DNA of 32,000 nucleotides from Halomicrobium mukohataei DSM 12286 (GCF_000023965.1 NC_013202.1:1620001-1652000), one strand, 5' to 3'; numbered from the stretch's first letter, positions 1 through 27,617 are shown. Numbers and translations are program-made. The notes: generated by a model from the sequence alone, not told the origin.

Positions 1-30
1 ATTTCTCGACGTCTTCGAGTCGAAGTAGGC

Positions 31-747
31 TCATTCGTTGCCTCCTGGGATCGCGTAGCGGTCGTGTAGTCGATCGAGCGTCCGGTTTGTCGCGACGGTC
101 AACACGAAGTAGATCGCGGTGATCGTGAGGATGACCTCCATCACGGCGGTGCCCCGGCCGGGCTGGAGATAGAGGTTCTCGGCCCGAGTCAGGAGCTCCG
201 CCAGTCCGATCGCGAAGGCGACGCTGGTGTCTTTCAGCACGATCGTGAACTCGTTTTGAAAGCCGGGGATCGAGCGCCGGATCGCCTGCGGGAAGATCAC
301 GTGGCGGATGGCCTGGAGCTTGCTCATGCCGATCGAGCGGGCCCCCTCCATCTGACCTTCGCTGATCGACTGTATCGCGCCCCGGAACACTTGGCTCTGG
401 TAGGCCCCGCTACGGAGCCCGAGCGCCAGCGCCGCCGCGAGAAACGGCGTCACCTGGATGTCGAGCGCCGGCACGGTGCCAAGCTGTGGGATCGGGAGCC
501 CGAAGTACAGCACCACGACGAGCACGACGATCGGCGTACCACGGAAGACGACGCCGACGGTGCCGACCACCGACCGGAGCGAGTCCGGCCCGTACACCTC
601 GATCGCCCCCATCGGGAATCCGGCCAGAAACCCCAGCGAGAGACTGGTGATCGTCAGCAACACCGTGACGATCGTTCCCAGCAGCAGGAAGTCCGCGTTG
701 CTGGCGACGAAGAGCCAATCGCTGCTTTGCAACACGATCCCCGCCAT
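31..747 (-). CDS. Polar amino-acid ABC transporter permease (HisM/GlnP type)
   Basis: 238-aa multi-TM ORF. The segment GARSIGMSKLQAIRHVIFPQAIRRSIPGFQNEFTIVLKDTS matches the EAA-loop region of binding-protein-dependent amino-acid permeases. It starts 5 nt after the stop of the binding-protein gene. Confidence 0.85.
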   Translation of the reverse strand: MAGIVLQSSDWLFVASNADFLLLGTIVTVLLTITSLSLGFLAGFPMGAIEVYGPDSLRSVVGTVGVVFRGTPIVVLVVVLYFGLPIPQLGTVPALDIQVTPFLAAALALGLRSGAYQSQVFRGAIQSISEGQMEGARSIGMSKLQAIRHVIFPQAIRRSIPGFQNEFTIVLKDTSVAFAIGLAELLTRAENLYLQPGRGTAVMEVILTITAIYFVLTVATNRTLDRLHDRYAIPGGNE

Positions 748-752
748 CTATC

Positions 753-1529
753 TCACTCGAACCACTCGCCGACGAGCTCGTCGTATGTACCGTCGTCGCG
801 CAGTTCCGCGAGCGCGTCGTTCAGATCGCTCAGGCGCTCGTCGTCGGGACGCATCCCCATGCCGAACTGCTCGCCGGTGTCGATGACGAACGCGATCGCG
901 ACCGCACGGTCGCCCGCGAAGCTCCCGGCCACGGGCTCGTCGACGATCACGGCGTCGACGTTGCCGTTTTCGAGGTCCTGGGCTGCCAGCGTGTAGTTGT
1001 CGTAGCGCCGGAGGTCGTCTTCGGCGACGAGTCCGTCCTCGACGAGTGCCTCCGCCTCGCCCTCGCCCGTGGTGCCGCCCTGGGCACCGACGCGGACGCC
1101 TTCGAGATCCTCGACCGACTCCGGCTGGAACTCGCCGCCTTCCTGGACGAGGACGGCCTGGCTGGACTCCCAGTAGGGGTCGGTGAAGTCGATCTGCTCC
1201 TGGCGGTCCGGGCCGATCGTCATGCCGGCGGCGATCAGATCGATATCGCCGTCCAGCACCGACGGGATCAGCGACTCGAAGGCGATGTCCTGCCACTCGC
1301 CGACCTCGTAGCCGGCCCGGTCGATGACCGTCTCGGCCAGCTCGATGTCGAAGCCGACCAGTTCGCCGTCCTCGGTGTACTCGAACGGCGGGAACCCGGA
1401 GTTCGTCCCGGGAACGATCGTCTCCGTGTTCTCCTCGCTACTCGAACAGCCGGCGATCGCCGTCGTGGCTCCGAGAGCCCCGACGGTCTTCATGTACGCC
1501 CGCCGATCCATACTGTACGTACGAGCCAT
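753..1529 (-). CDS. Amino-acid ABC transporter substrate-binding lipoprotein (family 3 SBP)
   Basis: Twin-arginine/lipobox N-terminus MDRRAYMKTVGALGATTAIAGCSS. The body GFPPFEY...LVGFDIELA...DLIAAGMTI...IDFTDPYW is typical of polar amino-acid SBPs. The start is ambiguous: ATG at 1529 or 1511. The track start at 1610 is unlikely. Confidence 0.85.
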   Translation of the reverse strand: MARTYSMDRRAYMKTVGALGATTAIAGCSSSEENTETIVPGTNSGFPPFEYTEDGELVGFDIELAETVIDRAGYEVGEWQDIAFESLIPSVLDGDIDLIAAGMTIGPDRQEQIDFTDPYWESSQAVLVQEGGEFQPESVEDLEGVRVGAQGGTTGEGEAEALVEDGLVAEDDLRRYDNYTLAAQDLENGNVDAVIVDEPVAGSFAGDRAVAIAFVIDTGEQFGMGMRPDDERLSDLNDALAELRDDGTYDELVGEWFE

Positions 1530-1655
1530 ACCGATTGATCGGTAGAGCCACTGTTGAACGTTTCGGGCCTGTTCTGGATGGTCTATCATGCCGACGGCGG
1601 TGATCGGCATTTTTCGAGGGCGGGCGAGGGGGTAATCACTCGCGGCTCTGCTTCG

Positions 1656-1670
1656 TATCTGAACACCGCC
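1656..1670 (+). promoter_or_regulatory. Copy 1 of shared 15-nt motif TATCTGAACACCGCC, 63 nt upstream of the ATG at 1719
   Basis: Exact 15-mer also present at 3247-3261 with identical spacing to the ATG at 3310. Both copies lie in divergent intergenic regions and follow a pyrimidine-rich run. Confidence 0.3.
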
Positions 1671-1687
1671 GTCTCCGTGGCGGGACC

Positions 1688-1693
1688 ATTTAT
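1688..1693 (+). promoter_or_regulatory. TATA-like box (ATTTAT) for a leaderless transcript of the 1719 gene
   Basis: AT-rich hexamer 26-31 nt upstream of the ATG at 1719 in an otherwise GC-rich spacer. This is typical haloarchaeal leaderless geometry. Confidence 0.4.
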
Positions 1694-1718
1694 GTTCGCG
1701 CGTACCACACGGGTGAGC

Positions 1719-2564
1719 ATGGAACAGCTATCCTCGTGTTACTTCTGTGGAGCCGCCCTCGACGCCCAGATCGAGCCGTACCAGGTCGTGCCGGCGTCGC
1801 TGGAGCCGACCGACGACCAGCAGCGAGCCGTCTCGCTGTGTCCGAGCTGTCGCCAGAAGCTCGCACACGTCGTCGAGACCGTCGTCGAAGCCAGCGACGA
1901 CGGGGACGCCACCGCGGCCATGGACGACGTGTCGGATCTCGACCCCGATGGAACGCTCCTCGACGACGAGCCAGGCACCGCGACCGGAGTCGACGACTCC
2001 GTGGCCGACGGCCAGTCGACGGACGCGAGCAACGACACGAAACCGGAACCGGAACCGGAACCCGCACACGAGGGGCGATCCGACGACGGTAGTGAGCCGT
2101 CCCAGTCCGACGCCGACGGACAGGCCCAGCGCACGGGGTCGCGTCACTCTCACAACGGGACGGGCGACGAGCAGGGTGTCGATCGCCGCCGCGACGGCGA
2201 GACGCGAACGGACCGTGCCCCGGACGAACGTCGGGCCGAGAGCAGCGAGCGACGCGACGGTGCCGGTCCGCGACGAGACGGCCGGGGCGCAGCCGACGAC
2301 GCCGAGGCCGACCGGACACAGCAGACTCACAGTGCCGGCGACACGGGCGAGGACGACGACGGACCGTCGCTGACGGCACTGGAGTACAACAAGGTGATGC
2401 GACTCCTCCAGAACCGTGAGTTCCCGGTCGAACGCGCCGAGATCCACGACATCGCGACGAGCGCCTACGAGATCAGCGACCGGGAGTTCGACGCGATCAT
2501 CGACGCCGCGATCGAGCGCGGCCTCATCGACGAGGAGAACGGTACGCTCGTGAGCGGCGACTGA
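1719..2564 (+). CDS. Hypothetical acidic protein with N-terminal zinc ribbon and C-terminal wHTH-like domain
   Basis: MEQLSSCYFCG...CPSCRQK gives a CxxC..CxxC pattern. It is followed by a long D/E/P-rich linker containing PEPEPEP, encoded by (CCGGAA)3. The C-terminal helical domain reads LTALEYNKVMRLLQ...IERGLIDEENG. Start chosen at the ATG with an upstream TATA. Confidence 0.6.
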   Translation: MEQLSSCYFCGAALDAQIEPYQVVPASLEPTDDQQRAVSLCPSCRQKLAHVVETVVEASDDGDATAAMDDVSDLDPDGTLLDDEPGTATGVDDSVADGQSTDASNDTKPEPEPEPAHEGRSDDGSEPSQSDADGQAQRTGSRHSHNGTGDEQGVDRRRDGETRTDRAPDERRAESSERRDGAGPRRDGRGAADDAEADRTQQTHSAGDTGEDDDGPSLTALEYNKVMRLLQNREFPVERAEIHDIATSAYEISDREFDAIIDAAIERGLIDEENGTLVSGD

Positions 2565-2570
2565 TCGCGA

Positions 2571-3121
2571 TCACTCGACTCGCTGCGTGTAGGTCACCTG
2601 TTTCTCGGTGAAGCCGTTGTCCTCGTAGAAGCTGCGCGCCCCCTCGTTGGCCCACTCATACGGAAAGTTGTAGGTCTTTACCAGATCGACCGCACGACGG
2701 CGTGCGGTCGACTGGGTAAACGCCTACAACCGTCCGTATCACAGGAGACTTCCAGGTAGTCGACGCCGCGTTCGCGCGCGAGTCGCTCGACGCACTCGAT
2801 GGCCGCAGTACCGTAGCCTCGACTTCTGTGGCCCTGCTCGACGAACAGATCGACGATCTGGAGGTACCTGTCCAGTGCCCGCGAGGGGTGTTCCCCTTCG
2901 CGTACGAGCACCGAGCCGACCGTCCGGCCGTCGACTTCCAGCAGGAAGGCCGTGGTGTCGTCACCGTCGACGTGGTGCTGTGCAATGCCCTCGACGACGT
3001 CCGCCGGATCGTCGTGAGCCAGTTCGTTCAGCTCCGAGTACGGCTCCATCTCGCTGGCCAGCTGGAACCAGTACTCGGCGAGCAGTTCGGCGTCGTCTCG
3101 GGTCGCCTCGACGAGGTCCAT
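2571..3121 (-). pseudogene. GNAT-family N-acetyltransferase interrupted by an 80-bp MITE
   Basis: ORF 2678-3121 carries a GNAT motif-A-like segment, LFVEQGHRSRGYGTAAIECVERLARERG, but ends in nonsense inside the insert. The natural C-terminus EWANEGARSFYEDNGFTEKQVTYTQRVE* is readable at 2571-2655 in another frame. Deleting 83 bp (the element plus one TCA) restores a continuous 155-aa ORF reading ...VDYLEVSCEWANEG... Confidence 0.8.
2659..2738. mobile_element. 80-bp palindromic MITE-like element flanked by a 3-bp direct repeat TCA
   Basis: The two 40-nt halves are inverted repeats with 32/40 matches (TACGGAAAGTTGTAGGTCTTTACC... versus ...GGTAAACGCCTACAACCGTCCGTA). TCA occurs at 2656-2658 and 2739-2741. 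There is no coding capacity, and the element sits precisely inside a GNAT reading frame. Confidence 0.75.
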
Positions 3122-3246
3122 ACGCCGGTCACAGAGCCGTCGTCGATAGCTGTTCTGGTGGTCTGGGAACCGGTCACACGCCAGCCGAGGTAGTGTTCAG
3201 AGAAGCGACGCGAGGGCTTCGGTGCCTGAATGACGCTACTCTCTCT

Positions 3247-3261
3247 TATCTGAACACCGCC
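3247..3261 (+). promoter_or_regulatory. Copy 2 of shared 15-nt motif TATCTGAACACCGCC, 63 nt upstream of the ATG at 3310
   Basis: Identical sequence and identical distance to the start codon as copy 1 (1656-1670). Confidence 0.3.
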
Positions 3262-3309
3262 CAGCCGACTCCCCGAAGGCATACGGACGGGGCCGTCGAA
3301 GGGCCGGCC

Positions 3310-4077
3310 ATGGATCTGCAGACACTCACGGACCGACTGGACGAGCGACTCGACACGGCGGCCTACGCCGATCTGGACGCCAGCCCGAACGGACTCCAGG
3401 TCGAGACCCGCTCGACCGAGATCGAGCACGTCGCCGTCGCCGTCGACGCCGCCGAGGCGACCGTCGAGGCGGCCGCCGACGCCGGGGCCGATCTCCTGGT
3501 CACACACCACGGTATCGTCTGGGGCGGGATGGAGCGACTGACCGGGACCCACTACCGTCGGATGGCTCCCCTGATCGAGCACGGCCTGGGGCTGTACGTC
3601 TCCCACCTCCCTCTCGACGGCCATCCGGAGTTGGGCAACGCCGCCGGAGTCGCAGACCTGCTCGAACTGGACGACCGGGCTCCCTTCGGCGAGGTCGGCC
3701 CGGAGTACATCGGCCAGCGCGGACGGGCAGCCAGCAGCTACACCGCCGAGGACCTCCGATCGTCGCTGGCCGACGAACTCGACACCGCCGGCCAGCCCGT
3801 GCAGGTGCTCGACTTCGGCCCCGACGAGATCGAGGACATCGCGATTGTCACCGGCAGCGGCAGCGACTGGATCGGCGAAGCCGCCGAGGCCGGCGTGGAC
3901 GCGCTCGTGACCGGCGAAGGCAAACAGAAAGCCTACCACGAGGCCCGCGAAGCGGGGCTGACGGTCGTACTGGCCGGCCACTACGCCACGGAGACCGTTG
4001 GCGTCCGATCCCTCGCCGCGCTGCTCGAAGAGTGGGGCCTGACCACGACCTACGTCGACCACCCGACCGGACTGTAA
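3310..4077 (+). CDS. Nif3-like dinuclear metal centre protein (DUF34 / GTP cyclohydrolase 1 type 2 homologue)
   Basis: 255 aa. Motifs seen: SPNGLQVE, DLLVTHHG, LYVSHLPLDGHPELGN, LVTGE...LAGHYATE. This is the characteristic NIF3 pattern. The internal ATG at 3310 was chosen over the Arg-rich 5' extension of the track ORF. Confidence 0.85.
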   Translation: MDLQTLTDRLDERLDTAAYADLDASPNGLQVETRSTEIEHVAVAVDAAEATVEAAADAGADLLVTHHGIVWGGMERLTGTHYRRMAPLIEHGLGLYVSHLPLDGHPELGNAAGVADLLELDDRAPFGEVGPEYIGQRGRAASSYTAEDLRSSLADELDTAGQPVQVLDFGPDEIEDIAIVTGSGSDWIGEAAEAGVDALVTGEGKQKAYHEAREAGLTVVLAGHYATETVGVRSLAALLEEWGLTTTYVDHPTGL

Positions 4078-4129
4078 CGACCACGACGGACCGCATCCCT
4101 CAAGCGCCCTCGGCGGCCACTGTCCGCCG

Positions 4130-4705
4130 ATGGACGCGCCGGTCGAGTTCGACGCGATCGACGATCACGACGACCTGATCGCGTGGTCCCGTGCCTACTG
4201 CAAGCACGCTCGTCGCAAGTGGCTGGTGGACGTGCGCCTCGACCTCGTCGAGTGGACGGTCTCGACGCGGGCCCGCCGCCGCGCCGCCGCGGTCAGACAC
4301 CCCCAGATCGACGACGCCACCGTCGGCGACGCCCTGGACTGGGACGCCGTCCCCGACGCCGACGGCAGGCCGCTCCCCTGTACGCTGTCGCTGACCTGGG
4401 ACGCGTTCCGCGAGTTCTCGCAGGCGGAGTGGGCGTCGACGCTGCGCCACGAGCTGATCCACGTCGAACAGTACCAACACTGCGCCACGACCGGCCACGG
4501 CGCGGCGTTCCGGTGGCGCGCCGAGACACTCGACACCGAGGTCCACTGCCAGACGTTCGCCGACGCGCGCTGGACCTTCGAGTGTCGAACCTGTGGCACC
4601 GTCGTCGCCCGCCGCTACCGTGACTGCCCGTTCGTCCGCGAGTACGACCGCTACCGCTCGGACTGCTGTGGGGCACAGCTTCGATGCGTCGAACGATCGG
4701 AGTGA
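4130..4705 (+). CDS. SprT-like zinc metalloprotease-domain protein
   Basis: HExxH motif in LRHELIHVEQYQH, followed by a Cys-rich C-terminal zinc-ribbon-like region (CRTCG...C...CC...C). Confidence 0.7.
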   Translation: MDAPVEFDAIDDHDDLIAWSRAYCKHARRKWLVDVRLDLVEWTVSTRARRRAAAVRHPQIDDATVGDALDWDAVPDADGRPLPCTLSLTWDAFREFSQAEWASTLRHELIHVEQYQHCATTGHGAAFRWRAETLDTEVHCQTFADARWTFECRTCGTVVARRYRDCPFVREYDRYRSDCCGAQLRCVERSE

Positions 4706-4879
4706 ACCCTGTCGAGGACGAGCATCTACCGGCGTTGCTCCGCGAATCGTTCAGCCGATCTCTCGCGGTGTCCATCTACCGAATCTCCTGTACTGTCGGC
4801 CGTCCATCTGTGACCGATTTCGCCACACGGGGTGGCGAATGTCGTCACGAAGTTATAGCCAACAGTAGCAGGCGAGTTC

Positions 4880-5148
4880 GTTCTGTGGGCATGGTCCAGG
4901 ACCGTCTTCGGATCGTCCAAATGCGGAGCATCGGCCGTGACGAAACCGGGATTCGGCTAGCCGGGCAAATACGCTCACGGATCCGGTTTTCTGAATCCGT
5001 GGCCGAGATGTCGATACTACTGGCCGATAACCTTCGGCGGGGTCGAGCGAGGGGTTTAATCCTCGCGGTCGTGTCTGCTATCATGCTTCCGTGGTTAGGG
5101 CACGGAAGCCACAGCGGGCCGGTGTTGCAGCACCGGGCCCGCGTTTTC
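4880..5148 (+). ncRNA. Candidate structured small RNA (unclassified)
   Basis: Lies in a 590-bp gap where ORFs in any frame are basic and not protein-like. Possible TATA TTATAG at 4853-4858. Stacked hairpins at 4976-5001, 5047-5066 and 5085-5109 (9-bp stem). A further hairpin at 5116-5140 is GC-rich and followed by GCGTTTTCC, which is terminator-like. The boundaries are guesses. Confidence 0.2.
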
Positions 5149-5259
5149 CGAACTGTTGCAGCAGTCCGGGTGACCTCCGTGGCTAATTATTCTCCTACAT
5201 CACAATAATAGTTTCTAAACTTGTAATGTTCTCAATCACATTAACACAGGCAACCAGAG

Positions 5260-5266
5260 TTTATAT
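5260..5266 (+). promoter_or_regulatory. TATA-like box (TTTATAT) for the leaderless wHTH gene
   Basis: Located 27-33 nt upstream of the ATG at 5293. Confidence 0.4.
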
Positions 5267-5292
5267 GACCCACACAACCGATAGACGGCACA

Positions 5293-5502
5293 ATGGCGGG
5301 TCGAAAACCAGACGTAACCGATGAGGAGATCATCGCAGTACTGTCTCAGGCTTCTGATCCTGTTCTATCTACGAACGAAGTTGCCGAGCAGCTACCGATC
5401 AAATCAAATGCGACACAGATCCGACTGAAAGAGCTCCGTTCGGCGGGTCGTATCAGCGGAAAGCAGGCTGGTCGAAGCTGGGTCTGGTGGGTTGATAAAT
5501 AG
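5293..5502 (+). CDS. Small winged-helix DNA-binding protein (haloarchaeal mobile-element type)
   Basis: 69 aa. The pattern RKPDVTDEEIIAVL..SDPVLSTNEVAEQLPI...IRLKELRSAGRISGKQAGRSWVWWV is typical of small halobacterial HTH proteins. The gene is AT-rich and converges on the HEPN gene. Confidence 0.6.
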   Translation: MAGRKPDVTDEEIIAVLSQASDPVLSTNEVAEQLPIKSNATQIRLKELRSAGRISGKQAGRSWVWWVDK

Positions 5503-5522
5503 ATATGTATTAATGGCAGTAT

Positions 5523-7031
5523 TTATTCTATGTCTAAGTCACTCTTTAATATATCTTCTTCAGACAGTTCCTCTTTCATTAGCGAGTGAGCGAATCCTAT
5601 TATTTCACTGGACTCATTCTGGGAGACAGTTTCCATATCATGGACTACGTTATTGCGCTTTTTTCTCATTTTATTAAGCGAATCGTATTGGGTATTTGAT
5701 ATGGCGTTGCTCATTTCCAAAACCTCAATTTTATGCGTAGAAGTCCAATTTGCACTAGAGGTCACCTTCTTTCGCCGGTCGTGATTTACTCCAACTGTAT
5801 TTTTAAGATGAGAATCTAAAAATTGGTTAATATGTTGTTCTATAGCGATCCAAGTCAGGAGGTAAGATTGTCTAAATTCTCCATTTTTATGATGAGTGTA
5901 TGCCTGGAGTAGCGATTTTGCTTTTTCCTGCAAATCCTCATCGGCACATATCGACTCTGCCAAATCAACGACGGCTTCCAAAGTTTCGGTCTCAACTATA
6001 TCGCGAGATACCAGATCTCTTGAACGGAAATGATCTTCATTTTGGACATTATAATATGGTTCGATGATTTTCCGCTCAATTCGTTCAGGAGATCCAATAG
6101 GACGTATCTCAGTTGTATCGTCCTGGGATTCAATTCTGACTTCTACAAGATCATCAACTGTCGCAGCTAGGAATGGTTCAGTAGTGTATAGGGATGCTGA
6201 AAAGATAGAATTTAGTATATTTAATGCCTTCTGAGGATCAGACTCGTCGACACAAATAAATCCATCTTGTCGAATATATACATCTATTTCCTGTATATTT
6301 AAATTCAACTGAGCTTCCTTCTCACGATTTGGCTCATTTAGAATCTTATCTTTGAACGATTGCTCTGGTTCAGAGCCAACCCAAATCGGTTTGTAAAAAT
6401 ATGTACCCAACCCATCGCGGTCCCTCTCTGGAGGTGATGAATCCGGTTCTTCGGTCGATCTATCTTCATCAACCGAGTCAAATAAACCCTCTAATTGAAC
6501 AATAGAGATATCTGTTGGGTCTAATTCCAAAATGTCGCCTATTATCACATAGCCCCAGCCGAACCGCCCAAGATCGAGTTGGGTGTATGCACTTTTATCA
6601 TAGTCTTGGAATATTGAGTCTTCTACGGTTTCAACGAAAACTGAAAATAAGTCTCTTAACAGGCGGCGACGCTTCACTAAACCAGTACCATCGACGTCTC
6701 GTCTATGTGATATGCGGCTTTTTTCGACCGGTTGCTGCCACCGCGGAGATTCCAAGACTGAATCTGCCTCTTCTATAAAGTTTTTACCATCAAAGGGACC
6801 ATTTATGATGATTTCAAAATCATCCCGGTTGTCGTCATGAGTCTTGACAAGGGCGTAAGCGGGTATAGGGTCCTCAATATAGAATATCTCTAATTGGATT
6901 GGTTTCCGAAAATCCATCCCTCTATATGTTTTAAATATCCCATCCATTTCTTCGACATCTTCTGGATAATATTCTTCAAAATCACTTACTAGGTCCTCTA
7001 AATAATCCTCCAACTCAGACTCACTGGACAT
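5523..7031 (-). CDS. Large protein with C-terminal HEPN-like (Rx4H) module and an uncharacterised N-terminal region of about 370 aa
   Basis: 502-aa uninterrupted ORF in AT-rich DNA, where long ORFs rarely arise by chance. The C-terminal all-helical region reads FRQSYLLTWIAIEQHINQFL...YDSLNKMRKKRNNVVHDMETVSQNESSEIIGFAHSLM. It contains RNNVVH, which matches the HEPN Rx4-6H signature. Confidence 0.65.
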   Translation of the reverse strand: MSSESELEDYLEDLVSDFEEYYPEDVEEMDGIFKTYRGMDFRKPIQLEIFYIEDPIPAYALVKTHDDNRDDFEIIINGPFDGKNFIEEADSVLESPRWQQPVEKSRISHRRDVDGTGLVKRRRLLRDLFSVFVETVEDSIFQDYDKSAYTQLDLGRFGWGYVIIGDILELDPTDISIVQLEGLFDSVDEDRSTEEPDSSPPERDRDGLGTYFYKPIWVGSEPEQSFKDKILNEPNREKEAQLNLNIQEIDVYIRQDGFICVDESDPQKALNILNSIFSASLYTTEPFLAATVDDLVEVRIESQDDTTEIRPIGSPERIERKIIEPYYNVQNEDHFRSRDLVSRDIVETETLEAVVDLAESICADEDLQEKAKSLLQAYTHHKNGEFRQSYLLTWIAIEQHINQFLDSHLKNTVGVNHDRRKKVTSSANWTSTHKIEVLEMSNAISNTQYDSLNKMRKKRNNVVHDMETVSQNESSEIIGFAHSLMKEELSEEDILKSDLDIE

Positions 7032-7196
7032 ATAACCTTCAGATGAAACTTGACCGTATAGTATTTTCCATACAGTTAATATATTCTATGTTTTTATGAT
7101 GCTAACATCAGGCTGCACTGCGGCGAGGCCGGGATCGTCAAGGTCGTCTCACTGTCTCCAAACGTTGGGAGACTAGCTCTATAGAATATATCGGGT

Positions 7197-7586
7197 TTAT
7201 AAGAGTGAGAACGTGAGGATACTCACTACACTCACTCCGAATATCGTAATATCTGGGATGCCATCTAAAATTTTCTCGTGTAATGTCTTTCTCTCCGCAA
7301 TGAGCTCCGCTCGTTGCTTTTGTTTTATCTCAGAAGCTATCTCGTCAATCGTCTCCTCGACGCCCGGATCTAAAGCATCATATTGCTCTAATGTCTGGCG
7401 CTTGGATCTCAATTCTCGCGAAGCTGCACGGCATTGTTCCAGTTGCAGTTCTTGAGAGCTTGTTGGTGGTCTATCTCGAGACCGTCGTAATTCGGCTATT
7501 TCATCCTCAGAAAGGCCGATCTGCGACATACTCTCATCTATAATCCATGATCTAATAAGTCTGGCTTCAGGACTATATATCAGCAA
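7197..7586 (-). CDS. Coiled-coil protein with C-terminal transmembrane anchor
   Basis: The central region is rich in heptads of charged residues (ELQLEQCRAASRELRSKRQTLEQ...KQKQRAELIAERKTLHEKI). The C-terminus ITIFGVSVVSILTFSLL is hydrophobic. It is co-directional with and upstream of the HEPN gene. The start may instead be the internal MSQIGL at 7529. Confidence 0.5.
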   Translation of the reverse strand: MLIYSPEARLIRSWIIDESMSQIGLSEDEIAELRRSRDRPPTSSQELQLEQCRAASRELRSKRQTLEQYDALDPGVEETIDEIASEIKQKQRAELIAERKTLHEKILDGIPDITIFGVSVVSILTFSLL

Positions 7587-8135
7587 CCGGAGGATCTTTC
7601 TCCCGATCTACGACGGGTACGTCGTCATCGTCGTCGGCACAGTCCTCCACGGCTTCGAGGTCTTGCTGACCGTCGCCCAGCTCGTCGCTGGGGAAGTCCC
7701 AGTACGCATACGCACCAATGTAGTCGACGATACACCGGAATGTGGCTTCCTCGGGCAGCGTTGAACGCACCTGCGGCTGTTCCACGTCCGAGATTGCCCG
7801 CTCGACGGCGGCGTCGAGATCGTCGAGGTCGTCCCCTGCCGACGGGCGAGGTCGTCACGTATCTCGCCCTCGCTCCCCGCTTGTACGGAGTCGAGCGAAC
7901 ACCAGCGGACGGCTTCGCGAACGCCGGGGTCCTGCGTGCGGTCGTTCGGGTCGATCCCCTCGGTGATCGCTTCCGAGCAGGACCAGAACACCGGTTCGTC
8001 GCCCCGTACAGCGCGAGCTTCCACGTCGCCGCTGTGTCGGCGTCCGACTCTCTGTCGTCCTCGGACGCCACAAAGGACTCCGTGGCGTCGAGCAGCGAGC
8101 CAGCGGCTCGAGAGGAAATGCGACGCCGAAAACGG
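7573..8135 (-). pseudogene. Frameshifted acidic ORF abutting attL (unknown function)
   Basis: Three consecutive protein-like acidic segments lie in three different frames: ...SLLDATESFVASEDDRESDADTAATWKLALYGATN, then PVFWSCSEAITEGIDPNDRTQDPGVREAVRWCSLDSVQAGSEGEIRDDLARRQG, then DDLDDLDAAVERAISDVEQPQV...VADI*. The frame switches fall at about 7990 and at a GGGG run at about 7835. Outside these segments each frame becomes R/S/T/P-rich. Confidence 0.45.
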
Positions 8136-8138
8136 TGA

Positions 8139-8153
8139 AGTGGGACCGCCGAG
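8139..8153 (+). repeat. attL: 15-bp copy of the tRNA-Pro 3' end (AGTGGGACCGCCGAG)
   Basis: Exact match to 27545-27559, which covers the discriminator, the 3' acceptor strand and the start of the T-stem of tRNA-Pro. It lies 63 bp from the stop of a tyrosine integrase gene. Confidence 0.8.
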
Positions 8154-8216
8154 CCAAGCCACAAAATCGACAGACGGCGTTACGATGGTTCGATCTGCTG
8201 TGTGGATGTGGTGGGT

Positions 8217-9254
8217 TCATGATTCGCTTGGAGTGTCGAGTTGCAGGTCGGTGATGTAGGGGCGACGGCGCTGTTCCAACCGCTGGCGCTCCGTCGCCTG
8301 GTCGTAGTACTTCTCGATGACTTCGAGCGTGGCGTTCACCCGCTCGCCGACGATCTCCGCCGGCAGGCCGCAGTCGCGTTGCCACGTGATGCTCCCCGTC
8401 CTGATCCGGTGGGGAGAGAGCGACGACGGGCACTTGCTGGCGTGGTGAACGTGGACGTACTCGCAGGCGTCCCGCTCCTCCCCGTGGGGACAGGGACCGA
8501 ACAGGCACGGCTGCGTGGCCAGATACGTCCACACACGTAGCGTGTTCTCGGACGAGCGACCCTGCGTCGTCGTGAACAGCGGCTTCCGTCCGCTGCCGTC
8601 GTGAGAGGTCTCGCGATAGTGCTCGATGTAGTAGTCCAGCACCTCGCAGACCGATTCCGGTAGGCCGACCGCTCGCTCGCCGTCCGAATCGTTCTTGAGC
8701 GGCGTGCCATCGCGGTGGTGGAACGTCACGAAGCGCTCGGCGCTGTGGTAGTCTCGCAGGTCGAGACTCCGAGCTGCACCGACACGGCAGCCGGTGAACC
8801 ACAGCAGTTCGAGCACGGCGTGCTTCGCCGTCCCGTACCGCTCCGGCGTCTCACGGAACGACCGAATCAGGGCCGCGGCGTCGTCCGGGTCGAGCATCTC
8901 GTCGTTGGAGCCCTCGCCGTCGGGGATGCTGGGGACGTGGACCTTCTCCGGCAGCCCGTCGTCGACGACACCGATACGGGCCAGGTACTCCAGCCAGTTC
9001 TTGAGCGTCTGCATCTCGCCGTTCAGTGTCGACGCAGCGAGGTCCTGACCGCGTCGGTGGGTCTCGTACTCGTCGAGCGTCCACCCGGTCAGGTCGCTCA
9101 TCGCCTCGATCCCCTCCTTCTCCTCCGTCCAGTCGACGAAGATCTTCAGTCGGTACCGCCACGACTTGACGGACTCCGCTGCCGACTCCGTCTTGCGGTG
9201 GTTCAGGTACCTCTCCATCGCTTCGCGAGGGGACAGGTCCGGCGCGTCAGTCAT
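8217..9254 (-). CDS. Tyrosine-type site-specific integrase
   Basis: 345 aa. The N-terminal SAM-like core-binding region reads SPREAMERYLNHRK...SWRYRLKIFVDW. Catalytic residues appear in LLWFTGCRVGAARSL (Arg), SPHRIRTGSITW (HxxR) and EVIEKYY (Tyr). Confidence 0.9.
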   Translation of the reverse strand: MTDAPDLSPREAMERYLNHRKTESAAESVKSWRYRLKIFVDWTEEKEGIEAMSDLTGWTLDEYETHRRGQDLAASTLNGEMQTLKNWLEYLARIGVVDDGLPEKVHVPSIPDGEGSNDEMLDPDDAAALIRSFRETPERYGTAKHAVLELLWFTGCRVGAARSLDLRDYHSAERFVTFHHRDGTPLKNDSDGERAVGLPESVCEVLDYYIEHYRETSHDGSGRKPLFTTTQGRSSENTLRVWTYLATQPCLFGPCPHGEERDACEYVHVHHASKCPSSLSPHRIRTGSITWQRDCGLPAEIVGERVNATLEVIEKYYDQATERQRLEQRRRPYITDLQLDTPSES

Positions 9255-9783
9255 CGGCGACGACGGCTTTCCCGGCCCCGTCGTCGGGCTGCGCTCGGTC
9301 CAGGTCGTCGGCGTCGGCGACGCGCTTCCCCTTCACGTAGACGCGCTCTTCGTCGCTCTGGTCGTAGTGCTCGGTCCGCACTTCGCGGATACCGCCGATC
9401 CGATGAGGGGGAAGCTTGCCTTCTCGACCGCGCCACTCCGTGAACGAGACCCACCCGCTCGACAGCGTCTCGTAGTTGGCGACGTAGACCGGCCCCTGAC
9501 CGCGCACGTCGACGTAGGCCGGCGTGTAGGTGTCGGGCAGCCGCTCGGGGTCGACGCGGTCGCTCTCGGCGTCGATCTCGCCGCCGTCGGGTAGCACCCG
9601 CTGCTTGCGCTTGACGATCTTGCCGGCCCGCGAGATCAGCAGGTGCTCGCTCTCGTCCGTGTGGTGAGTCCATGTCTCGCCGCACTCGGAGCACTCGACG
9701 GCGGCCTCGTCCTGCTGGAGAGTCCCGTCACACAGCACGCGAGGGCAGTCGTCGCCGTCCCAGATCTGCTGGGTCACCGTCAT
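9247..9783 (-). CDS. Zinc-ribbon protein of unknown function
   Basis: N-terminal CPRVLC...CSEC motif. The ORF is acidic and overlaps the integrase start by 8 nt, which suggests an operon. Confidence 0.65.
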   Translation of the reverse strand: MTVTQQIWDGDDCPRVLCDGTLQQDEAAVECSECGETWTHHTDESEHLLISRAGKIVKRKQRVLPDGGEIDAESDRVDPERLPDTYTPAYVDVRGQGPVYVANYETLSSGWVSFTEWRGREGKLPPHRIGGIREVRTEHYDQSDEERVYVKGKRVADADDLDRAQPDDGAGKAVVADD

Positions 9784-9863
9784 GGGCCGCTCTCCTCGCT
9801 GTCGTCACGCTTTTCGTCGTCGCCGTCGTCGTCAAAATCAGGGGCCAGCCGGGCACTGGACAT
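9780..9863 (-). CDS. Tiny acidic ORF (27 aa), below the ORF-track cutoff
   Basis: MSSARLAPDFDDDGDDEKRDDSEESGP. Its ATG is 1 nt after the TAA of the upstream RHH gene, and its TGA overlaps the ATG of the 9783 gene (ATGA). Confidence 0.3.
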   Translation of the reverse strand: MSSARLAPDFDDDGDDEKRDDSEESGP

Positions 9864-9864
9864 G

Positions 9865-10071
9865 TTAGGCGGCCCCCGTTTCGGACTCGTCGATACTACC
9901 GTTCTCGTCCCGGCAGAGTACCGTTTCAGGCGTGTCGAAAGGTGAATCCGTAGCCTGTCGGATGCAGTGGCGGATGTACTCTGCTCGGCTCATATTGTGC
10001 CGATCCTTCTCTTCCTCGATCTGCATGAGCATGGCCGGTTCCATACCCACGGTCACATTTGCATGTGGCAT
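9865..10071 (-). CDS. Ribbon-helix-helix (CopG/Arc-like) DNA-binding protein
   Basis: MPHANVTVGMEPAMLMQIEEEKDRHNMSRAEYIRHCIRQA fits the beta-alpha-alpha RHH pattern. The internal ATG at 10071 is preferred. The track start at 10131 adds an AT-rich leader. Confidence 0.65.
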   Translation of the reverse strand: MPHANVTVGMEPAMLMQIEEEKDRHNMSRAEYIRHCIRQATDSPFDTPETVLCRDENGSIDESETGAA

Positions 10072-10188
10072 GCATGAATGACTGATTAGCTCCTGCAAGT
10101 TATAGTTTACGAGAGACCTAAAAACATTCAAAGACTATCGAGGCAAACATCCGAGAGCAATATCAGTCATGCATTCATTCACTCAGAC

Positions 10189-10512
10189 ATGCGCTATTCG
10201 GGCGACTGGATGGTACTCGCAGATGACCGGATTCTCGAATACATCCGCGAAAATGAATCTGGTCGCCCAACTGCGATGGCAGAAAGCGGGTACGTCCGGT
10301 ATTCACGTCAGTATGTCCACCAGAGATGCAAGAAGCTCACCAAGCACGGACTCCTGAAACATCTCGGCAATGGGGTCTACATCATCACAGAACGCGGAGA
10401 GGGTTATCTGAACGGCGAGATCGACACGTCCGAAGACGCACCGGACGAGGTGGAGCCAGTCTTCGACGAGGACAACGGACCAAGCGTCGGGGAGAACCAC
10501 GAGCAGGTCTAA
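10189..10512 (+). CDS. PhiH1-repressor-like winged-helix protein (paralogue 1)
   Basis: WMVLADDRILEYIRENESGRPTAMAESGYVRYSRQYVHQRCKKLTKHGLLKHLGNGVYIITERGEGYLNGEID matches the halobacterial PhiH1-repressor-homologue pattern W..DDRILE...GLL...G.Y.IT..G..YL.GE.D. Confidence 0.7.
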   Translation: MRYSGDWMVLADDRILEYIRENESGRPTAMAESGYVRYSRQYVHQRCKKLTKHGLLKHLGNGVYIITERGEGYLNGEIDTSEDAPDEVEPVFDEDNGPSVGENHEQV

Positions 10513-10515
10513 GAG

Positions 10516-10806
10516 ATGAACGAGAGAAAGTCGGCCCACTGGATGAAGCAGCTGGACGAACGAATCTTAGAGTACATCGACCGGGACGGAATGGCGACTC
10601 CCCGGATGATGGCCCGCGACAGGGCTTTCACAGCGTCGCCAAGTCACATCTGGGAACGGTGCCAGATGCTCTACTACATTCGGTTCGTCGAGCCGATCTA
10701 TAGCGACATGTACGACCTGACGACGGACGGGATGCTTTATCTTCAGGGGAAGATCGACGCCGATCACCGGCCAAAGCCGACTGTTGAGCGAGTCCTAGGA
10801 GGCTAA
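10516..10806 (+). CDS. PhiH1-repressor-like winged-helix protein (paralogue 2, divergent)
   Basis: HWMKQLDERILEYIDRDGMATPRMMA...YDLTTDGMLYLQGKIDA shows the same pattern. It starts 3 nt after paralogue 1. Confidence 0.65.
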   Translation: MNERKSAHWMKQLDERILEYIDRDGMATPRMMARDRAFTASPSHIWERCQMLYYIRFVEPIYSDMYDLTTDGMLYLQGKIDADHRPKPTVERVLGG

Positions 10807-10810
10807 ATGT

Positions 10811-11755
10811 ATGTTTATAAATAAAGTTTTCACTTGCCAAAAAATTGATTCTGGAGAGGAATCTGGGGAAGAGGAAGCTGAAGTTATGATTGACGACGAT
10901 AGTGGTAGTATCGATTTCCAGATGAGTCACTATGATGTTAGTGAAACTGGCAAAAGAGAGGCGCACGACGTAGAGGCCCAAGACATTCAAAGACGTACCC
11001 TTGAGCGAATGTTAACAGTAACGTCTGAATGGCTGGATTCGGACGTTAAAGGATCAGTCAGTGTCAATTTAGGAGAGGTATCGGGAGTATATGGTCAAAG
11101 AGGCCATGAAGTAGCGGTTGGAAGAGAAAGAATCAATTTTGACCTACATGTTTCAGTTAATGATCGAGGAGTTTGGTTTGGGGATCAAGATTTGGGGTTA
11201 TACAAGATCCCAGCAGGCCCAAAGAAAGACGTAAATAAAAACACATACAATAATCTATACAATATCCGTCAGTTCCGGGATTTATTGGAGGAGTTTCTCT
11301 ACAGCTACGGCAGAGAAAATAGAGATGATCAAGATGTTGGTAGTTTCAGCTACCCAACCTCTGAATTAGATGATGAACTCATTGAGCGTGTTCTCCCAAA
11401 GTATGATCGGGGAAATTTTGGCGACGCTGTTCAGACAGCGGGTAAAATTGTTGAAGAACGTGTTCGGCAAAAATCTCCGGAAGAACTCAAAGAGAAGGAT
11501 GGGAGCGAGCTTATTCAGGAAGCAACCAAGTCGGGTGGACCTCTCTCATTTGGAGAACGATCTGCGGAGGAACAGGGTGTAATGTTTCTGTATGCAGGCT
11601 CATATCAAGCAATCAGGAATCCGCTTAGCCATCGGTCTCCAGATCAGTCAAAAGAACGGTATTTAGATGATCTTGGGAAAGAAGAGGCCCACAATATAAT
11701 ATCATTCGTCAATCTTCAACTCCGGTTTTTAGACCAATATGCCAGTAGCCCCTGA
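10811..11755 (+). CDS. Ymh/TIGR02391-type HEPN-domain protein with an unknown N-terminal domain
   Basis: The C-terminus reads RGNFGDAVQTAGKIVEERVR...GSELIQEATKSGGPLSF...EEQGVMFLYAGSYQAIRNPLSHR...EEAHNIISFVNLQLRFLD. This fits the Hypoth_Ymh/TIGR02391 pattern, including the RNPxxH (Rx4H) motif. The gene is AT-rich and starts 4 nt after the preceding stop. The true start could be the internal MIDDD. Confidence 0.7.
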   Translation: MFINKVFTCQKIDSGEESGEEEAEVMIDDDSGSIDFQMSHYDVSETGKREAHDVEAQDIQRRTLERMLTVTSEWLDSDVKGSVSVNLGEVSGVYGQRGHEVAVGRERINFDLHVSVNDRGVWFGDQDLGLYKIPAGPKKDVNKNTYNNLYNIRQFRDLLEEFLYSYGRENRDDQDVGSFSYPTSELDDELIERVLPKYDRGNFGDAVQTAGKIVEERVRQKSPEELKEKDGSELIQEATKSGGPLSFGERSAEEQGVMFLYAGSYQAIRNPLSHRSPDQSKERYLDDLGKEEAHNIISFVNLQLRFLDQYASSP

Positions 11756-12017
11756 AGCAAGAGCTGAAAACATATTTGACGTAATCACACATGGGGTTGC
11801 GCGTCGAGAAAATGGCTTCCTCCAATATGAACACGAGACTGGGTGACTCCGTGTTCATATTCGCCGGTCGCCCTCGATCGTGACCACGAATCTCCTCGGC
11901 AGTTCAGCACTTCACCCCCAAATCGGGCCGAAATGACCCGTCCAGTGAGTCGAAAAACTAGGATTCTGTGGTCGTGTTCATAGATATCAGACACCGTTTA
12001 GCTTTCACGATTATTAT

Positions 12018-13015
12018 ACGCTCTTGTGAAGCACGTTGTTGATTTTCAGAGTGCGGCGTTGAGAGCATGTTTGAGTGCTTCGTCACCTGGTTTTCTGTAG
12101 AGTTCACGGCGGAGTTCGAAGGCTCTGAGATACGGCGTTAGCTTGTCTTTCGAGACGCCTCGATGGGGCGAGAGCCACCGTCGCGTCAGCGACGCGTGGC
12201 TCTCGCAGCCGTTGACGTGTACTTCGCCATCAGCGTATTCACCGTCGCTGTGGACGACGTATTTGCGGGTGAATGAGTCGTCGTCTTCTAGTGGGTCGTA
12301 GGCCCGAAATCCGTCCGTATAGACGGTCAGTGACTCCTCTTCGTGGTCAGCAAGCAGGAGTCGAACGGTCGATTCGTCAGCGGATTTCGCTGGCACGACG
12401 TACCGCTCGTCCGAACCACGATCGACGAGCGTGAACACCGGCGGTTTGTCGCCGTCGTACGATCCCCGTCCACGCGTGGACAGGCCACGCGAGCGCGACT
12501 CCTGGTCACGCTCGCGGCCTTTGAGACCAGCAGAGACGTACACTTCGTCGATTTCGACCGGTCCAGACAGCGTAATCGAAGGCGCGTCGAGAGTTCTGGC
12601 GAACTGCTCGACGTGCCGTCTCACCGTCCGGTAGGAACAATCAAGCTCTGCCTCGATTTGCCGAATACTCGTGTTGAACCGTAAGAACACGTAGATCGTG
12701 AAGTACCATTCTTTGAGCTTCAGCTTCGAGTGAGCGAAGATCGTGTCGGTCTTGTCGTTGAACGTGCGACCGCAATTCTTACACAGATACCGTTGATACA
12801 CCCGGTAGCTGCCGTTTCTGACCGTCAGGTCAGAACGGCAGCGGGGGCACTCGACGCCATCACGCCAGCGAACCTGTTCCAGCAGGTCCGCTGCAGCCGA
12901 TTCCGACACGAACCGGCTTATTGGGAACATATCGGGCACCGCTAGCGCGGTGCCCTTGCCCTCTTCGACTTTCAGCTCCAGCCATCGCTATCAACAATCT
13001 CCTTCGCAAGAGCGT
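12018..13015 (-). mobile_element. IS1595-family insertion sequence (ISH4-like), 998 bp
   Basis: Imperfect 26-bp terminal inverted repeats with 22/26 matches (ACGCTCTTGTGAAGCACGTTGTTGAT versus ACGCTCTTGCGAAGGAGATTGTTGAT). It has a single transposase ORF and is flanked by TATTAT on both sides (12012-12017 and 13016-13021). Confidence 0.8.
12046..12939 (-). CDS. IS1595-family DDE transposase
   Basis: N-terminal transposase zinc ribbon (CPRCRS...CKNCGRTF), then a DDE region (EIDEVYV...LTVYTDGFRAYD...VNGCESHASLTRRWL). This is the organisation typical of IS1595/ISH4-group transposases. Confidence 0.9.
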   Translation of the reverse strand: MPDMFPISRFVSESAAADLLEQVRWRDGVECPRCRSDLTVRNGSYRVYQRYLCKNCGRTFNDKTDTIFAHSKLKLKEWYFTIYVFLRFNTSIRQIEAELDCSYRTVRRHVEQFARTLDAPSITLSGPVEIDEVYVSAGLKGRERDQESRSRGLSTRGRGSYDGDKPPVFTLVDRGSDERYVVPAKSADESTVRLLLADHEEESLTVYTDGFRAYDPLEDDDSFTRKYVVHSDGEYADGEVHVNGCESHASLTRRWLSPHRGVSKDKLTPYLRAFELRRELYRKPGDEALKHALNAAL

Positions 13016-13156
13016 TATTATATGTCTGCCCGAATCATATACTATCAGATCAATATTTTAGTTAAATCTGTGAAGAATATACGGAGTTTGTATTCAAAGA
13101 GATTCGAAATCTATTGTTAGAGTCGATAAGAGTCATAATTTTGGTGTCCCGCCTTC

Positions 13157-13186
13157 AGGTCCAATGCCACAAGTGGCATTGGACCT
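13157..13186. repeat. Perfect 14-bp inverted repeat with a 2-nt spacer (AGGTCCAATGCCAC AA GTGGCATTGGACCT)
   Basis: Read directly from the sequence. It is located in AT-rich non-coding DNA between the IS and the RelE-like module. Confidence 0.7.
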
Positions 13187-13346
13187 ACAGACTACATAAA
13201 ACTTTCCTAGTCTCAGAACCGTAACGGAACTCGATATGTTGGTGGCTCTGAGCTACTGTTTAGACCTATCCGTGATCGTCTAGTAGCTGAGTAGCCTAGT
13301 GGCCTAGTAATTTATCAACTAGCAACCGCTTGTCCTAGACACGCTA

Positions 13347-13487
13347 ATGAGCACCTTCGACGAAGACAAGAAACACGAGCCGGAACTTGGAAACGGTGAT
13401 AGCCTCTCTGAGCGGCTCGATTCTATTGATCTCGATGAAGACGATACCTGCTCTACTGACGATCTTCGGGACAAACTCGATCTGTAG
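13347..13487 (+). CDS. Small acidic ORF (46 aa), possible antitoxin partner
   Basis: MSTFDEDKKHEPELGNGDSLSERLDSIDLDEDDTCSTDDLRDKLDL. TTTATC lies 31-36 nt upstream. The ORF ends 8 nt before the RelE-like gene and is below the track cutoff. Confidence 0.35.
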   Translation: MSTFDEDKKHEPELGNGDSLSERLDSIDLDEDDTCSTDDLRDKLDL

Positions 13488-13495
13488 CGGACTTA

Positions 13496-15249: not shown

Positions 15250-15315
15250 GTGCTGTGGTCAGTTAAGCCTCATGTGGTTTCTCATGTGCCACGCTGGGGA
15301 AAGAACACAGGAGCT

Positions 15316-17476: not shown

Positions 17477-17480
17477 CGGG

Positions 17481-18371: not shown

Positions 18372-18372
18372 G

Positions 18373-27544: not shown

Positions 27545-27559
27545 AGTGGGACCGCCGAG
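27545..27559 (+). repeat. attR: 15-bp core within the tRNA-Pro 3' end
   Basis: AGTGGGACCGCCGAG, identical to 8139-8153. Confidence 0.8.
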
Positions 27560-27617
27560 ATTCGAACTCAGGTCCTACCGACCCCATCGGCAGAGGATAC
27601 CACTACCCCACGGTCCC
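27547..27617 (-). tRNA. tRNA-Pro (anticodon GGG)
   Basis: Folded by hand into a 71-nt cloverleaf. Acceptor GGGACCG/CGGTCCC plus discriminator A. D-arm GGGT-AGTGGTA-TCCT. Anticodon arm TGCCG-ATGGGGT-CGGTA, with U33, GGG and G37. Variable region GGAC. T-arm CTGAG-TTCGAAT-CTCGG. No encoded CCA. Confidence 0.9.

Follow-up and report, generated by a model that had tools for sequence, protein, structure and literature searches.

A candidate single-protein HEPN abortive-infection gene carried as AT-rich cargo next to a provirus of Halomicrobium mukohataei

What is a short, AT-rich block of genes doing beside a provirus in a GC-rich archaeal chromosome? The question is raised by positions 5190-7600 of a 32,000-nucleotide stretch of the genome of Halomicrobium mukohataei DSM 12286 (GCF_000023965.1 NC_013202.1:1620001-1652000), hereafter called the window. 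A first reading of this DNA (the original prediction) proposed a three-gene defence or abortive-infection module composed of (i) a small winged-helix (wHTH) gene; (ii) a long open reading frame (ORF) for a 502-amino-acid (aa) protein with a C-terminal HEPN-like nuclease domain; and (iii) a gene for a membrane-anchored coiled-coil protein. The relevant feature is probably not a three-gene module but one gene (5523-7031, minus strand), whose product, by analogy with characterized systems, is on balance best regarded as a self-contained sensor-plus-HEPN abortive-infection ribonuclease (RNase) acting alone.

The first step concerns the origin of the DNA. An AT-rich islet of about 2.4 kb was indeed found: the GC content at 5190-7600 is 0.418 (300-nt windows go down to 0.373) vs. 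about 66% in the flanks, with 0.667 in the left flank (1-4845), 0.657 in the right flank (7601-10000) and 0.63 for the window outside the islet, which is its lowest-GC 2.4-kb stretch. The composition is foreign, as had been claimed, and this extends to the codon level: the GC content at third codon positions (GC3) of the 502-aa gene is 0.358, against 0.87-0.90 in the neighboring SprT-like and integrase genes. The closest available genome, that of H. katesii DSM 19301, encodes an SprT protein that is 96% identical. A blastn comparison with its corresponding locus (L059) aligns positions 3204-4845 at 97.7% and 7584-8084 at 89.7% identity, with no match between them; the exchanged unit is in consequence wider than the AT-rich core (Table 1). 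At the same position, H. katesii carries a different, lower-GC cassette of 1.77 kb (L059 10718-12487), which encodes a 330-aa orphan protein (no Pfam/PADLOC match) and a 66-aa ribbon-helix-helix protein. Since different cassettes lie between the same flanks in two species, the site between the SprT gene and the attachment (att) site acts as a hot spot of cassette swapping on the flank of the provirus attachment site. The islet is located about 555 bp outside the provirus border, and the 502-aa gene is foreign AT-rich cargo that arrived in this hot spot. Of the tRNA integration hot spot that had been postulated next door, the swappable site is real but the adjacent tRNA gene is not: the only tRNA gene of the window, tRNA-Pro, is 20 kb from the islet, and a tRNA-derived att repeat lies close by instead. 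No terminal repeats accounting for the exchange of cassettes were found, and homologous recombination in the conserved flanks would be the simplest account of it. A 13-nt direct repeat on either side of the HEPN gene (5521 and 7079) was rejected as meaningful, as a rough estimate places it at the chance level in AT-rich DNA.

The second step concerns the protein itself. As had been proposed, its C-terminal part, of about 145 residues, is predicted to be a HEPN domain, an assignment that rests on Foldseek probability, TM-score and motif taken together. In the AlphaFold (AF2) model obtained from a 76-sequence alignment (predicted local distance difference test, pLDDT, 88.9; predicted TM-score, pTM, 0.83), residues 348-488 are all-helical with pLDDT values of 80-98. 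The high-probability Foldseek matches of this model to the PDB, all of them local alignments, are solved HEPN domains only: 2hsb (probability 0.99, TM-score 0.69 normalized to the target, root-mean-square deviation 3.1 A), 2q00_B (probability 0.99, TM-score 0.65), the HepT structure 5yep_C (probability 0.91) and 7bxo_F (probability 0.75); Csm6 (8jbb and 5fsh) follows at a probability of about 0.5. Sub-threshold sequence matches of four libraries converge on residues 357-486 and every one of them is HEPN, for instance (i) HepT-like (17.8 bits vs. a threshold of 23.5), RiboL-PSP-HEPN (15.4 vs. 28.4) and DUF4145 (15.5 vs. 23.1) in Pfam; (ii) HepT_toxin (21.8 vs. 60 bits), the best NCBIfam match; and (iii) CARF_HEPN and PDC-M05B in PADLOC. 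Among the 76 family members of the alignment, the families matched by more than one protein belong to the HEPN clan only, both in Pfam (DUF4145 in 17, RiboL-PSP in 14 and Swt1 in 5 members) and in PADLOC (CARF_HEPN in 22, Csx1 in 10 and Csx1/Csm6 in 8). The domain hence appears nearest to the DUF4145 / RiboL-PSP / Swt1 and Csx1/Csm6 models, in all cases below threshold. The sequence RNNVVH (R459-H464), correctly taken for an Rx4-6H motif, has the form R-N-x3-H that is canonical for this motif in the HEPN superfamily (PMC3710099). Its three key residues are 91-99% conserved in the alignment (R459 in 73/76, N460 in 69/76 and H464 in 75/76), and RN...H was found in each of the 16 sequences checked, i.e., the window protein and those of 15 loci. 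Outside the motif, W394 is invariant, E398 is found in 75/76 and E436 in 72/76.

The N-terminal region (residues 1-345) is as hard to assign as was first claimed. Nothing credible was found for it in Pfam, NCBIfam, PADLOC, PHROGs or PDB sequences (the last searched with the single protein, a 6-sequence profile and the 76-sequence profile), nor by Foldseek against the PDB and BFVD; Pfam scans revealed neither ATPase / P-loop families nor a CARF or SAVED family. Full-length Foldseek matches to gyrase/topo IV, EpsL, Cas6, AcrB and TBP were dismissed as noise (probability <0.35, TM-score <0.3), and an internal duplication was discarded (hhalign probabilities <2%). In the model, a helical arm is followed by alpha/beta sub-regions at about 41-120 plus 148-191 and at 205-311, with about 17 beta-strands in residues 46-311; an earlier AlphaFold model, based on 6 sequences, had a poor N-terminus. 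Sub-regions 41-120 and 205-311 are conserved to the same degree as the HEPN domain (mean column identity 0.43 and 0.42 vs. 0.44), in contrast with the variable linkers at 121-204 and 312-345. Among single residues, Q46 and N274 do not vary, and conservation reaches 95-99% at D71, G257 and R320. The whole product is acidic (isoelectric point 4.46), as expected for a high-salt cytoplasm.

The architecture is not an oddity of this genome. An exhaustive profile search recovered at least 1,170 representative clusters (50% identity) at E<=1e-3, of which 226 at E<=1e-30, and a scan of the JGI metagenomes added 48 further loci. Among the 150 best clusters listed, most proteins are 470-520 aa long and aligned over nearly their full length; in consequence, the combination of this N-terminal region with a HEPN domain is ancient and fixed, and not a one-off fusion. 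The family, of proteins of about 480-510 aa, is mostly archaeal, and many members are found in archaeal-type contexts. It had at first seemed tiny: a word-index search yielded five relatives (31-40% identity, all singletons from read-archive assemblies), an impression overturned by the exhaustive search; the word-index search run with the 76-sequence profile, up to its candidate cap, brought no further relative. The family profile found no relative among the GTDB species-representative genomes (one per species, 185,579 species) or the IMG/VR viral contigs. Pfam, NCBIfam, PADLOC and PHROGs hold no model that captures the family, and no solved relative was found; of ten family proteins whose names were looked up, two had one, in both cases "hypothetical protein" (one of them from Halovenus marina). 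Rare long variants, P0137 (740 aa) and P0066 (741 aa), bear C-terminal extensions of about 250 aa. That of P0137 ends in C-x6-C-x2-C-x5-C, by eye the spacing of the endonuclease III iron-sulphur loop, and had no match among PDB sequences; that of P0066 contains a tandem repeat of about 110 aa.

The third step concerns the company that the gene keeps. In four independent loci it lies inside a type I restriction-modification (R-M) operon, in the following arrangements: (i) hsdM, then the family gene with a 4-nt overlap, and hsdR further downstream (L007); (ii) hsdM, then the family gene (L008); (iii) a small HEPN protein, hsdS, the family gene and hsdR, all abutting (L031, of which L038 is the same locus); and (iv) hsdR, a 133-aa ORF, hsdM, the family gene and hsdS, with 4- and 8-nt overlaps (L062). 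The proteins of the first three loci are 28-42% identical to one another. A position between hsd genes is classically the hallmark of PrrC, RloC and a number of further HEPN families (PMC3710099), and such tight embedding would be typical of defence genes. Up to two genes away, DpnII is found with a D12 methylase, and SacI is another neighbor; one sub-clade has AAA+ ATPases resembling IetA, and there is a neighbor that weakly matches AbiTii. Integrases are found as well: the Halovenus marina gene and the adjacent tyrosine integrase gene point away from each other in an element with Cdc6-like and HerA-like genes, while in L056/L057 the family gene abuts an integrase, with an SLFN/AlbA_2 gene near. 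At the level of the family, then, the defence and mobile context that had been claimed is found in type I and type II R-M systems, integrases and a swappable hot spot. In the low-GC sub-clade (L027, L034, L035, L042 and L045), the AAA+ ATPase nearby matches PADLOC IetA models (E 4.6e-43); the ATPase ORF or fragments of it are directly upstream in four of these loci and three genes upstream in L045, and an unannotated 348-aa protein is located downstream in four of the five. This neighborhood may reflect simple synteny or a multi-gene arrangement peculiar to the lineage.

When 173 flanking proteins from about 48 loci were compared all against all, the only neighbor families in common were those of closely related contigs. 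In L002-L004, which are close haloarchaeal relatives, the gene is solo, flanked by GC-rich genes (GC 0.38 vs. 0.65) at distances of about 60 bp (upstream) and about 190 bp (downstream), and it is also solo in L064; in L001, L002, L004 and L006, the haloarchaeal homologues are AT-rich genes in more GC-rich surroundings. The lack of conserved neighbors, together with these solo loci, argues for the self-sufficiency of the HEPN gene.

How, then, are the other two ORFs of the cassette to be understood? In the module as first conceived, a wHTH regulator and a membrane-anchored coiled-coil protein, as partner or effector, would work together with the HEPN protein, which now appears very unlikely. 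Both ORFs exist and have the orientation described, the membrane protein being a putative coiled coil. The wHTH ORF converges on the 502-aa ORF, with 20 bp between the stop codons, and matches Pfam HTH_24 above the gathering threshold (22.8 vs. 21.9 bits, E 6.6e-5) as well as phrog_18890, a transcriptional regulator. The upstream co-directional ORF spans 7197-7586 and has its probable start at ATG 7529, which gives 110 aa, as NCBI annotates; the claimed C-terminal transmembrane anchor is a 17-residue hydrophobic stretch, ITIFGVSVVSILTFSLL, with a mean Kyte-Doolittle hydropathy of 2.29. All three ORFs share the same 2.74-kb swapped cassette, and L001 also has an upstream co-directional ORF, helical and with a C-terminal hydrophobic segment. 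Nevertheless, these two upstream ORFs were rejected as counterparts, having zero sequence similarity, and the 110-aa ORF is an orphan that retrieved itself only among 5.8 billion protein clusters and no plasmid match. As for the wHTH ORF, it aligns with 40-52% identity to residues 8-74 of 204-232-aa proteins from 43 haloarchaeal plasmids, whereas the HEPN gene was found on no plasmid record; the wHTH is hence a separate evolutionary unit, an independent mobile-element gene. This copy stops right at the domain end and resembles the N-terminal domain of a longer protein on its own; it may be a 3'-truncated remnant. Neither the membrane nor the wHTH partner recurs across about 60 homologous loci, among which L002-L004 have the gene alone. 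Both ORFs appear to be unrelated passengers of the same cassette.

If the 502-aa protein acts alone as sensor and effector, its mode of action might be as follows: (i) two HEPN domains would pair to form a composite RNase site; (ii) this site would stay inactive as long as the N-terminal region has sensed no cue of infection; (iii) the active RNase would cut RNA of the cell, with tRNA anticodon loops or mRNA as its most plausible targets; and (iv) RNA cleavage would arrest the infected cell. The models for this scheme are PrrC/RloC, Csm6, ApeA, HepS, Tha and DARNA, with their dimeric composite sites and sensor-gated latent RNases (PMC3710099; PMC13043305; PMC11087260; 10.64898/2026.01.26.701840; 10.64898/2026.02.22.705581). 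Given that conservation of the N-terminus equals that of the nuclease and that some of its polar residues are invariant, a viral protein, which evolves fast, would be a less likely cue than a small conserved ligand, a nucleic acid or an RNA of the host, although this is the weakest step of the argument. A broader proposal is made only tentatively: the family may constitute a widespread, archaea-centered single-protein immune system in which an unseen sensor fold binds a conserved ligand or nucleic acid and allosterically opens the HEPN RNase.

Two other readings keep the RNase but change its purpose. The first one is an ancillary RNase of the Csm6/Csx1 type, with the N-terminus as a new second-messenger receptor and the cyclase or type III CRISPR system encoded elsewhere. 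The overall length and the layout (sensor at the N-terminus, HEPN at the C-terminus) are similar, Foldseek aligns the HEPN domain to T. thermophilus Csm6, the commonest PADLOC matches of the family are the CARF_HEPN, Csx1 and Csx1/Csm6 models mentioned above, and invariant polar residues such as those of the N-terminus are found in ligand pockets. But the CARF_HEPN match of the window protein covers the HEPN part only (model positions 347-436 of 482), and Pfam detects no CARF domain, nor any SAVED family, in the 502-aa protein. Besides, the 25 families most frequently matched by the 113 flanking genes include neither cas nor cyclase families, and the gene is often solo or in R-M operons. This reading is considered decidedly unlikely.

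The second one, a toxin-type addiction or stabilization gene, is rather unlikely. Here, a HEPN toxin would be checked in cis, by its own N-terminus, or in trans, by an antitoxin such as the wHTH protein or an RNA, and would keep the cassette or the neighboring provirus in the genome. HEPN domains are common as toxins of toxin-antitoxin systems (PMC3710099), the HepT toxin model is the best NCBIfam match, three genomes have the gene at the border of an integrated element, and the structured non-coding stretch of the cassette (Table 1) could be an RNA. Against this, no copy of that stretch exists in the other fetched loci, the conserved 340-aa N-terminus is far larger than a cis-inhibitor needs to be, and embedding in type I R-M operons points to defence instead. 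With regard to HepT-MntA in particular, there is no nucleotidyltransferase gene in the cassette, and neither MNT nor another conserved small neighbor appears among the recurrent neighbor families listed for the homologous loci.

Returning to the preferred reading of a lone sensor-effector, the 502-aa family appears to resemble the single-protein HEPN abortive-infection systems and to be a member of no named one. PrrC/RloC likewise have a C-terminal HEPN RNase with an Rx4-6H motif, are inserted between the hsd genes of type I R-M systems (PMC3710099), as are four of the relatives described above, and follow the same presumed logic of a latent RNase unleashed on infection. They differ in their N-terminal ABC-type ATPase, since that of the 502-aa family is a non-ATPase alpha/beta region, and the window copy lies outside R-M. 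ApeA is a deoxydinucleotide-activated tRNA anticodon nuclease, a single-gene HEPN defence whose RNase is gated by a conserved ligand pocket (bioRxiv 10.64898/2026.01.26.701840). Like the 502-aa protein, it consists of one chain, is comparable in size and carries its HEPN domain at the C-terminus, behind a large N-terminal part without catalytic function; some of its members are embedded in R-M operons (PMC3710099), like some of the relatives described here. However, ApeA has predominantly alpha-helical N and Mid parts and a split HEPN domain with insertions (10.64898/2026.01.26.701840), while the 502-aa protein has the beta-strands described above in its N-terminal region and a compact, uninterrupted HEPN domain. 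HEPN_Apea, ApeA_NTD1 and PADLOC ApeA match neither the window protein nor any of the 76 members, and the Abi_2 profile and PADLOC AbiD are absent from the same match lists. RiboL-PSP-HEPN, weakly matched here, is distantly related to AbiD/F (PMC3710099). In any case, the parallel with ApeA and AbiD/F drawn by the original prediction is reduced to an analogy.

HepS, from the Gifsy-1 prophage (PMC13043305), and Tha, from S. aureus prophages (PMC11087260), are single-protein HEPN abortive-infection systems that also travel as cargo of integrated elements and unite sensing and RNase in one protein. They differ in being bacterial and triggered by phage tail proteins, and the gene of the window is not within the provirus but a short way beyond its att site; no sequence similarity was detected, and neither is among the 50 best Foldseek matches listed (the presence of their structures in the PDB copy being unchecked). 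DARNA / PD-T7-3, a stand-alone defence protein of about 456 aa with a monomer of about 55 kDa (bioRxiv 10.64898/2026.02.22.705581), combines a Csm6-like HEPN domain with a large domain, formerly of unknown function, that senses a nucleic-acid cue. Its HEPN domain is nevertheless at the N-terminus, i.e., in reversed order, its sensor is all-helical and no sequence similarity was found. Ymh / TIGR02391 (PF09509), a HEPN family linked to R-M loci (PMC3710099), is separate, and the 502-aa protein has no PF09509 match.

A number of points weigh against the preferred reading: (i) RNase activity, toxicity and virus resistance are predicted properties of the 502-aa protein; (ii) the Foldseek E-values are 0.1-3, all above 0.1, which is explained by the use of the full-length 502-aa model as query; (iii) no HEPN-clan profile matches the protein above its curated threshold, so that the family falls beyond the existing models, even though the sub-threshold matches all point to one region; (iv) a tblastn search with the HEPN protein gave no match in phage and plasmid collections; (v) many other loci have only housekeeping or archaeal marker neighbors (TBP, TruD, PTH2, exonuclease VII); (vi) the survey of neighbor families covers the 25 most frequent Pfam/PADLOC families of the 113 flanking genes; (vii) the association of the family with R-M systems is qualitative; (viii) the window copy itself is outside any R-M operon or classical defence island; (ix) a strongly conserved sensor is unusual for direct recognition of viral proteins; and (x) the window protein has E at position 19, where 74/76 relatives have R, which may reflect an alignment shift or a functional change, and this copy may be impaired.

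Two of these points, namely the neighbors with housekeeping functions (chorismate synthase is a further example) and the E at the otherwise conserved R19, would also suit a housekeeping enzyme of RNA processing or a gene that has decayed and no longer functions, its AT-richness being fortuitous. This explanation is highly improbable: the family is patchily distributed, a scan of 185,579 species, with one genome each, yielded no relative, and H. katesii, the sole close relative compared, has a different cassette here. The foreign composition and the R-M operon and integrase contexts do not fit a housekeeping gene either, and, with regard to decay, the ORF is intact from end to end and, E19 apart, retains all the residues that are strongly conserved.

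The relevance of the locus derives from a large family that, in spite of a confident model, an intact HEPN motif and repeated embedding in R-M operons, is annotated as "hypothetical" and escapes the models of Pfam, NCBIfam, PADLOC and PHROGs. HEPN defence candidates are plentiful; this one stands out by its size, archaeal contexts, missing annotation and unrecognized sensor region. If it is a defence gene, it (i) adds an archaeal sensor-plus-RNase system with an unrecognized sensor domain; (ii) makes H. mukohataei a cultivable, sequenced host for the search for its trigger; and (iii) documents a haloarchaeal cassette-swapping hot spot by a provirus att, similar to the prophage defence hot spots of bacteria. 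If the immune-system reading is true, the family would be among the few defence families centered in archaea, and directly testable by haloarchaeal genetics. If it is not a defence gene, a large uncharacterized RNase family worth a name would remain.

Table 1. Location of the features discussed, in window coordinates.
Feature	Position	Strand	Remarks
Variable cassette	4846..7583		2.74 kb, GC 0.44, flanks conserved in H. katesii
Strongly structured non-coding stretch	4880..5190		About 310 nt, inside the cassette
69-aa winged-helix ORF	5293..5502	+	WP_015762655.1; converges on the HEPN gene
502-aa ORF	5523..7031	-	Exact match to WP_015762656.1 / C7P3Z0, annotated "hypothetical"
Predicted HEPN domain	5562..5996	-	Residues 346-490, all-helical
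RNNVVH (R459-H464), Rx4-6H motif	5640..5657	-	From the translation
N-terminal region	5997..7031	-	Residues 1-345, alpha/beta, no recognizable fold
110-aa acidic ORF	7197..7529	-	WP_126967180.1; C-terminal hydrophobic anchor
Conserved GC-rich right flank	7584..8084		89.7% to L059 12488-12990
Distal att core AGTGGGACCGCCGAG	8139..8153	+	Copy of the tRNA-Pro 3' end; left provirus border
Tyrosine integrase	8217..9254	-	WP_015762657.1; phrog_1 E 1.5e-25; weak Pfam Phage_integrase
tRNA-Pro (GGG)	27546..27617, att core from 27545	-	ARAGORN; right provirus border

With regard to the integrated element next to the cassette, the 15-mer AGTGGGACCGCCGAG has two exact copies in the window, at 8139-8153, 64 bp past the stop codon of the integrase, and at 27545-27559, at the 3' end of tRNA-Pro. 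SNJ2-type integrases are known for short, int-proximal tRNA-Pro att sites (PMC5861418), and the geometry found here (a core identical to the tRNA 3' end, near int and repeated at the tRNA) matches theirs. The same 15-bp core lies in H. katesii about 80 bp 3' of a different integrase, 34% identical to that of the window. An older, second att copy to the left of the islet was sought and discarded, with no further 15-mer match within 3 mismatches at 4700-5300; the search lent no support to the islet being what is left of an earlier tRNA-Pro element.

Between the 15-bp direct repeats at its borders (8139-27559) is an integrated SNJ1-like, sphaerolipovirus-type provirus of 19.4 kb. Its ORF at 17481-18371 is 36% identical to an SNJ1 region annotated as structural protein PB1 plus a hypothetical protein, and the SNJ1-like protein matches phrog_20439 (E 2.7e-65). 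Two proviruses of the sphaerolipovirus type, HaloMukP1 and HaloMukP2, have been published for this species (PMC4958249), and that of the window probably corresponds to one of them.

The provirus contains a gene (10811-11755, plus strand) for a 314-aa TIGR02391/Hypoth_Ymh protein (PF09509, E 3.3e-23) with an RNPLSH motif, which also matches PADLOC PD-Lambda-3_B (E 9e-6). With a GC3 of 0.36, it is located in an AT-rich stretch at about 10650-12000, 4 kb from the islet, and is preceded by two small ORFs; 10189-10512 was scanned and gave weak wHTH-type matches only. The window would thus carry two unrelated HEPN cargo genes, those of the 502-aa protein and the Ymh protein.

As for the borders of the cassette, the structured stretch at its left end has minimum free energy z-scores of -3.4 (plus strand) and -4.9 (minus strand) vs. 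shuffled controls, holds several perfect hairpins and belongs to no Rfam family (best E 0.92). A scan of the whole window at Rfam gathering thresholds gave zero matches, even though ARAGORN calls tRNA-Pro(GGG), which is probably a tool or filter effect. In the right flank, an acidic 70-aa ORF (7573-7785, minus strand) is intact and has a 72-aa counterpart in L059. Upstream of it, within 7573-8138, the acidic frame appears to jump among three minus-strand frames, possibly as frameshifted, pseudogene-like coding remnants.

Other features are found inside the provirus, the first three of which suggest a mosaic or decaying element: (i) an IS1595-family transposase (12046-12939, minus strand; DDE_Tnp_IS1595, E 2.2e-20); (ii) a short second tyrosine-integrase ORF of 195 aa (13835-14422, minus strand; phrog_1, E 3e-23); (iii) a 141-aa protein, PIN-like by eye (14582-15007, minus strand; phrog_35851, E 7.8e-35); and (iv) a 64-nt direct repeat, 94% identical, whose copies (23422-23485 and 23958-24021) are 536 nt apart.

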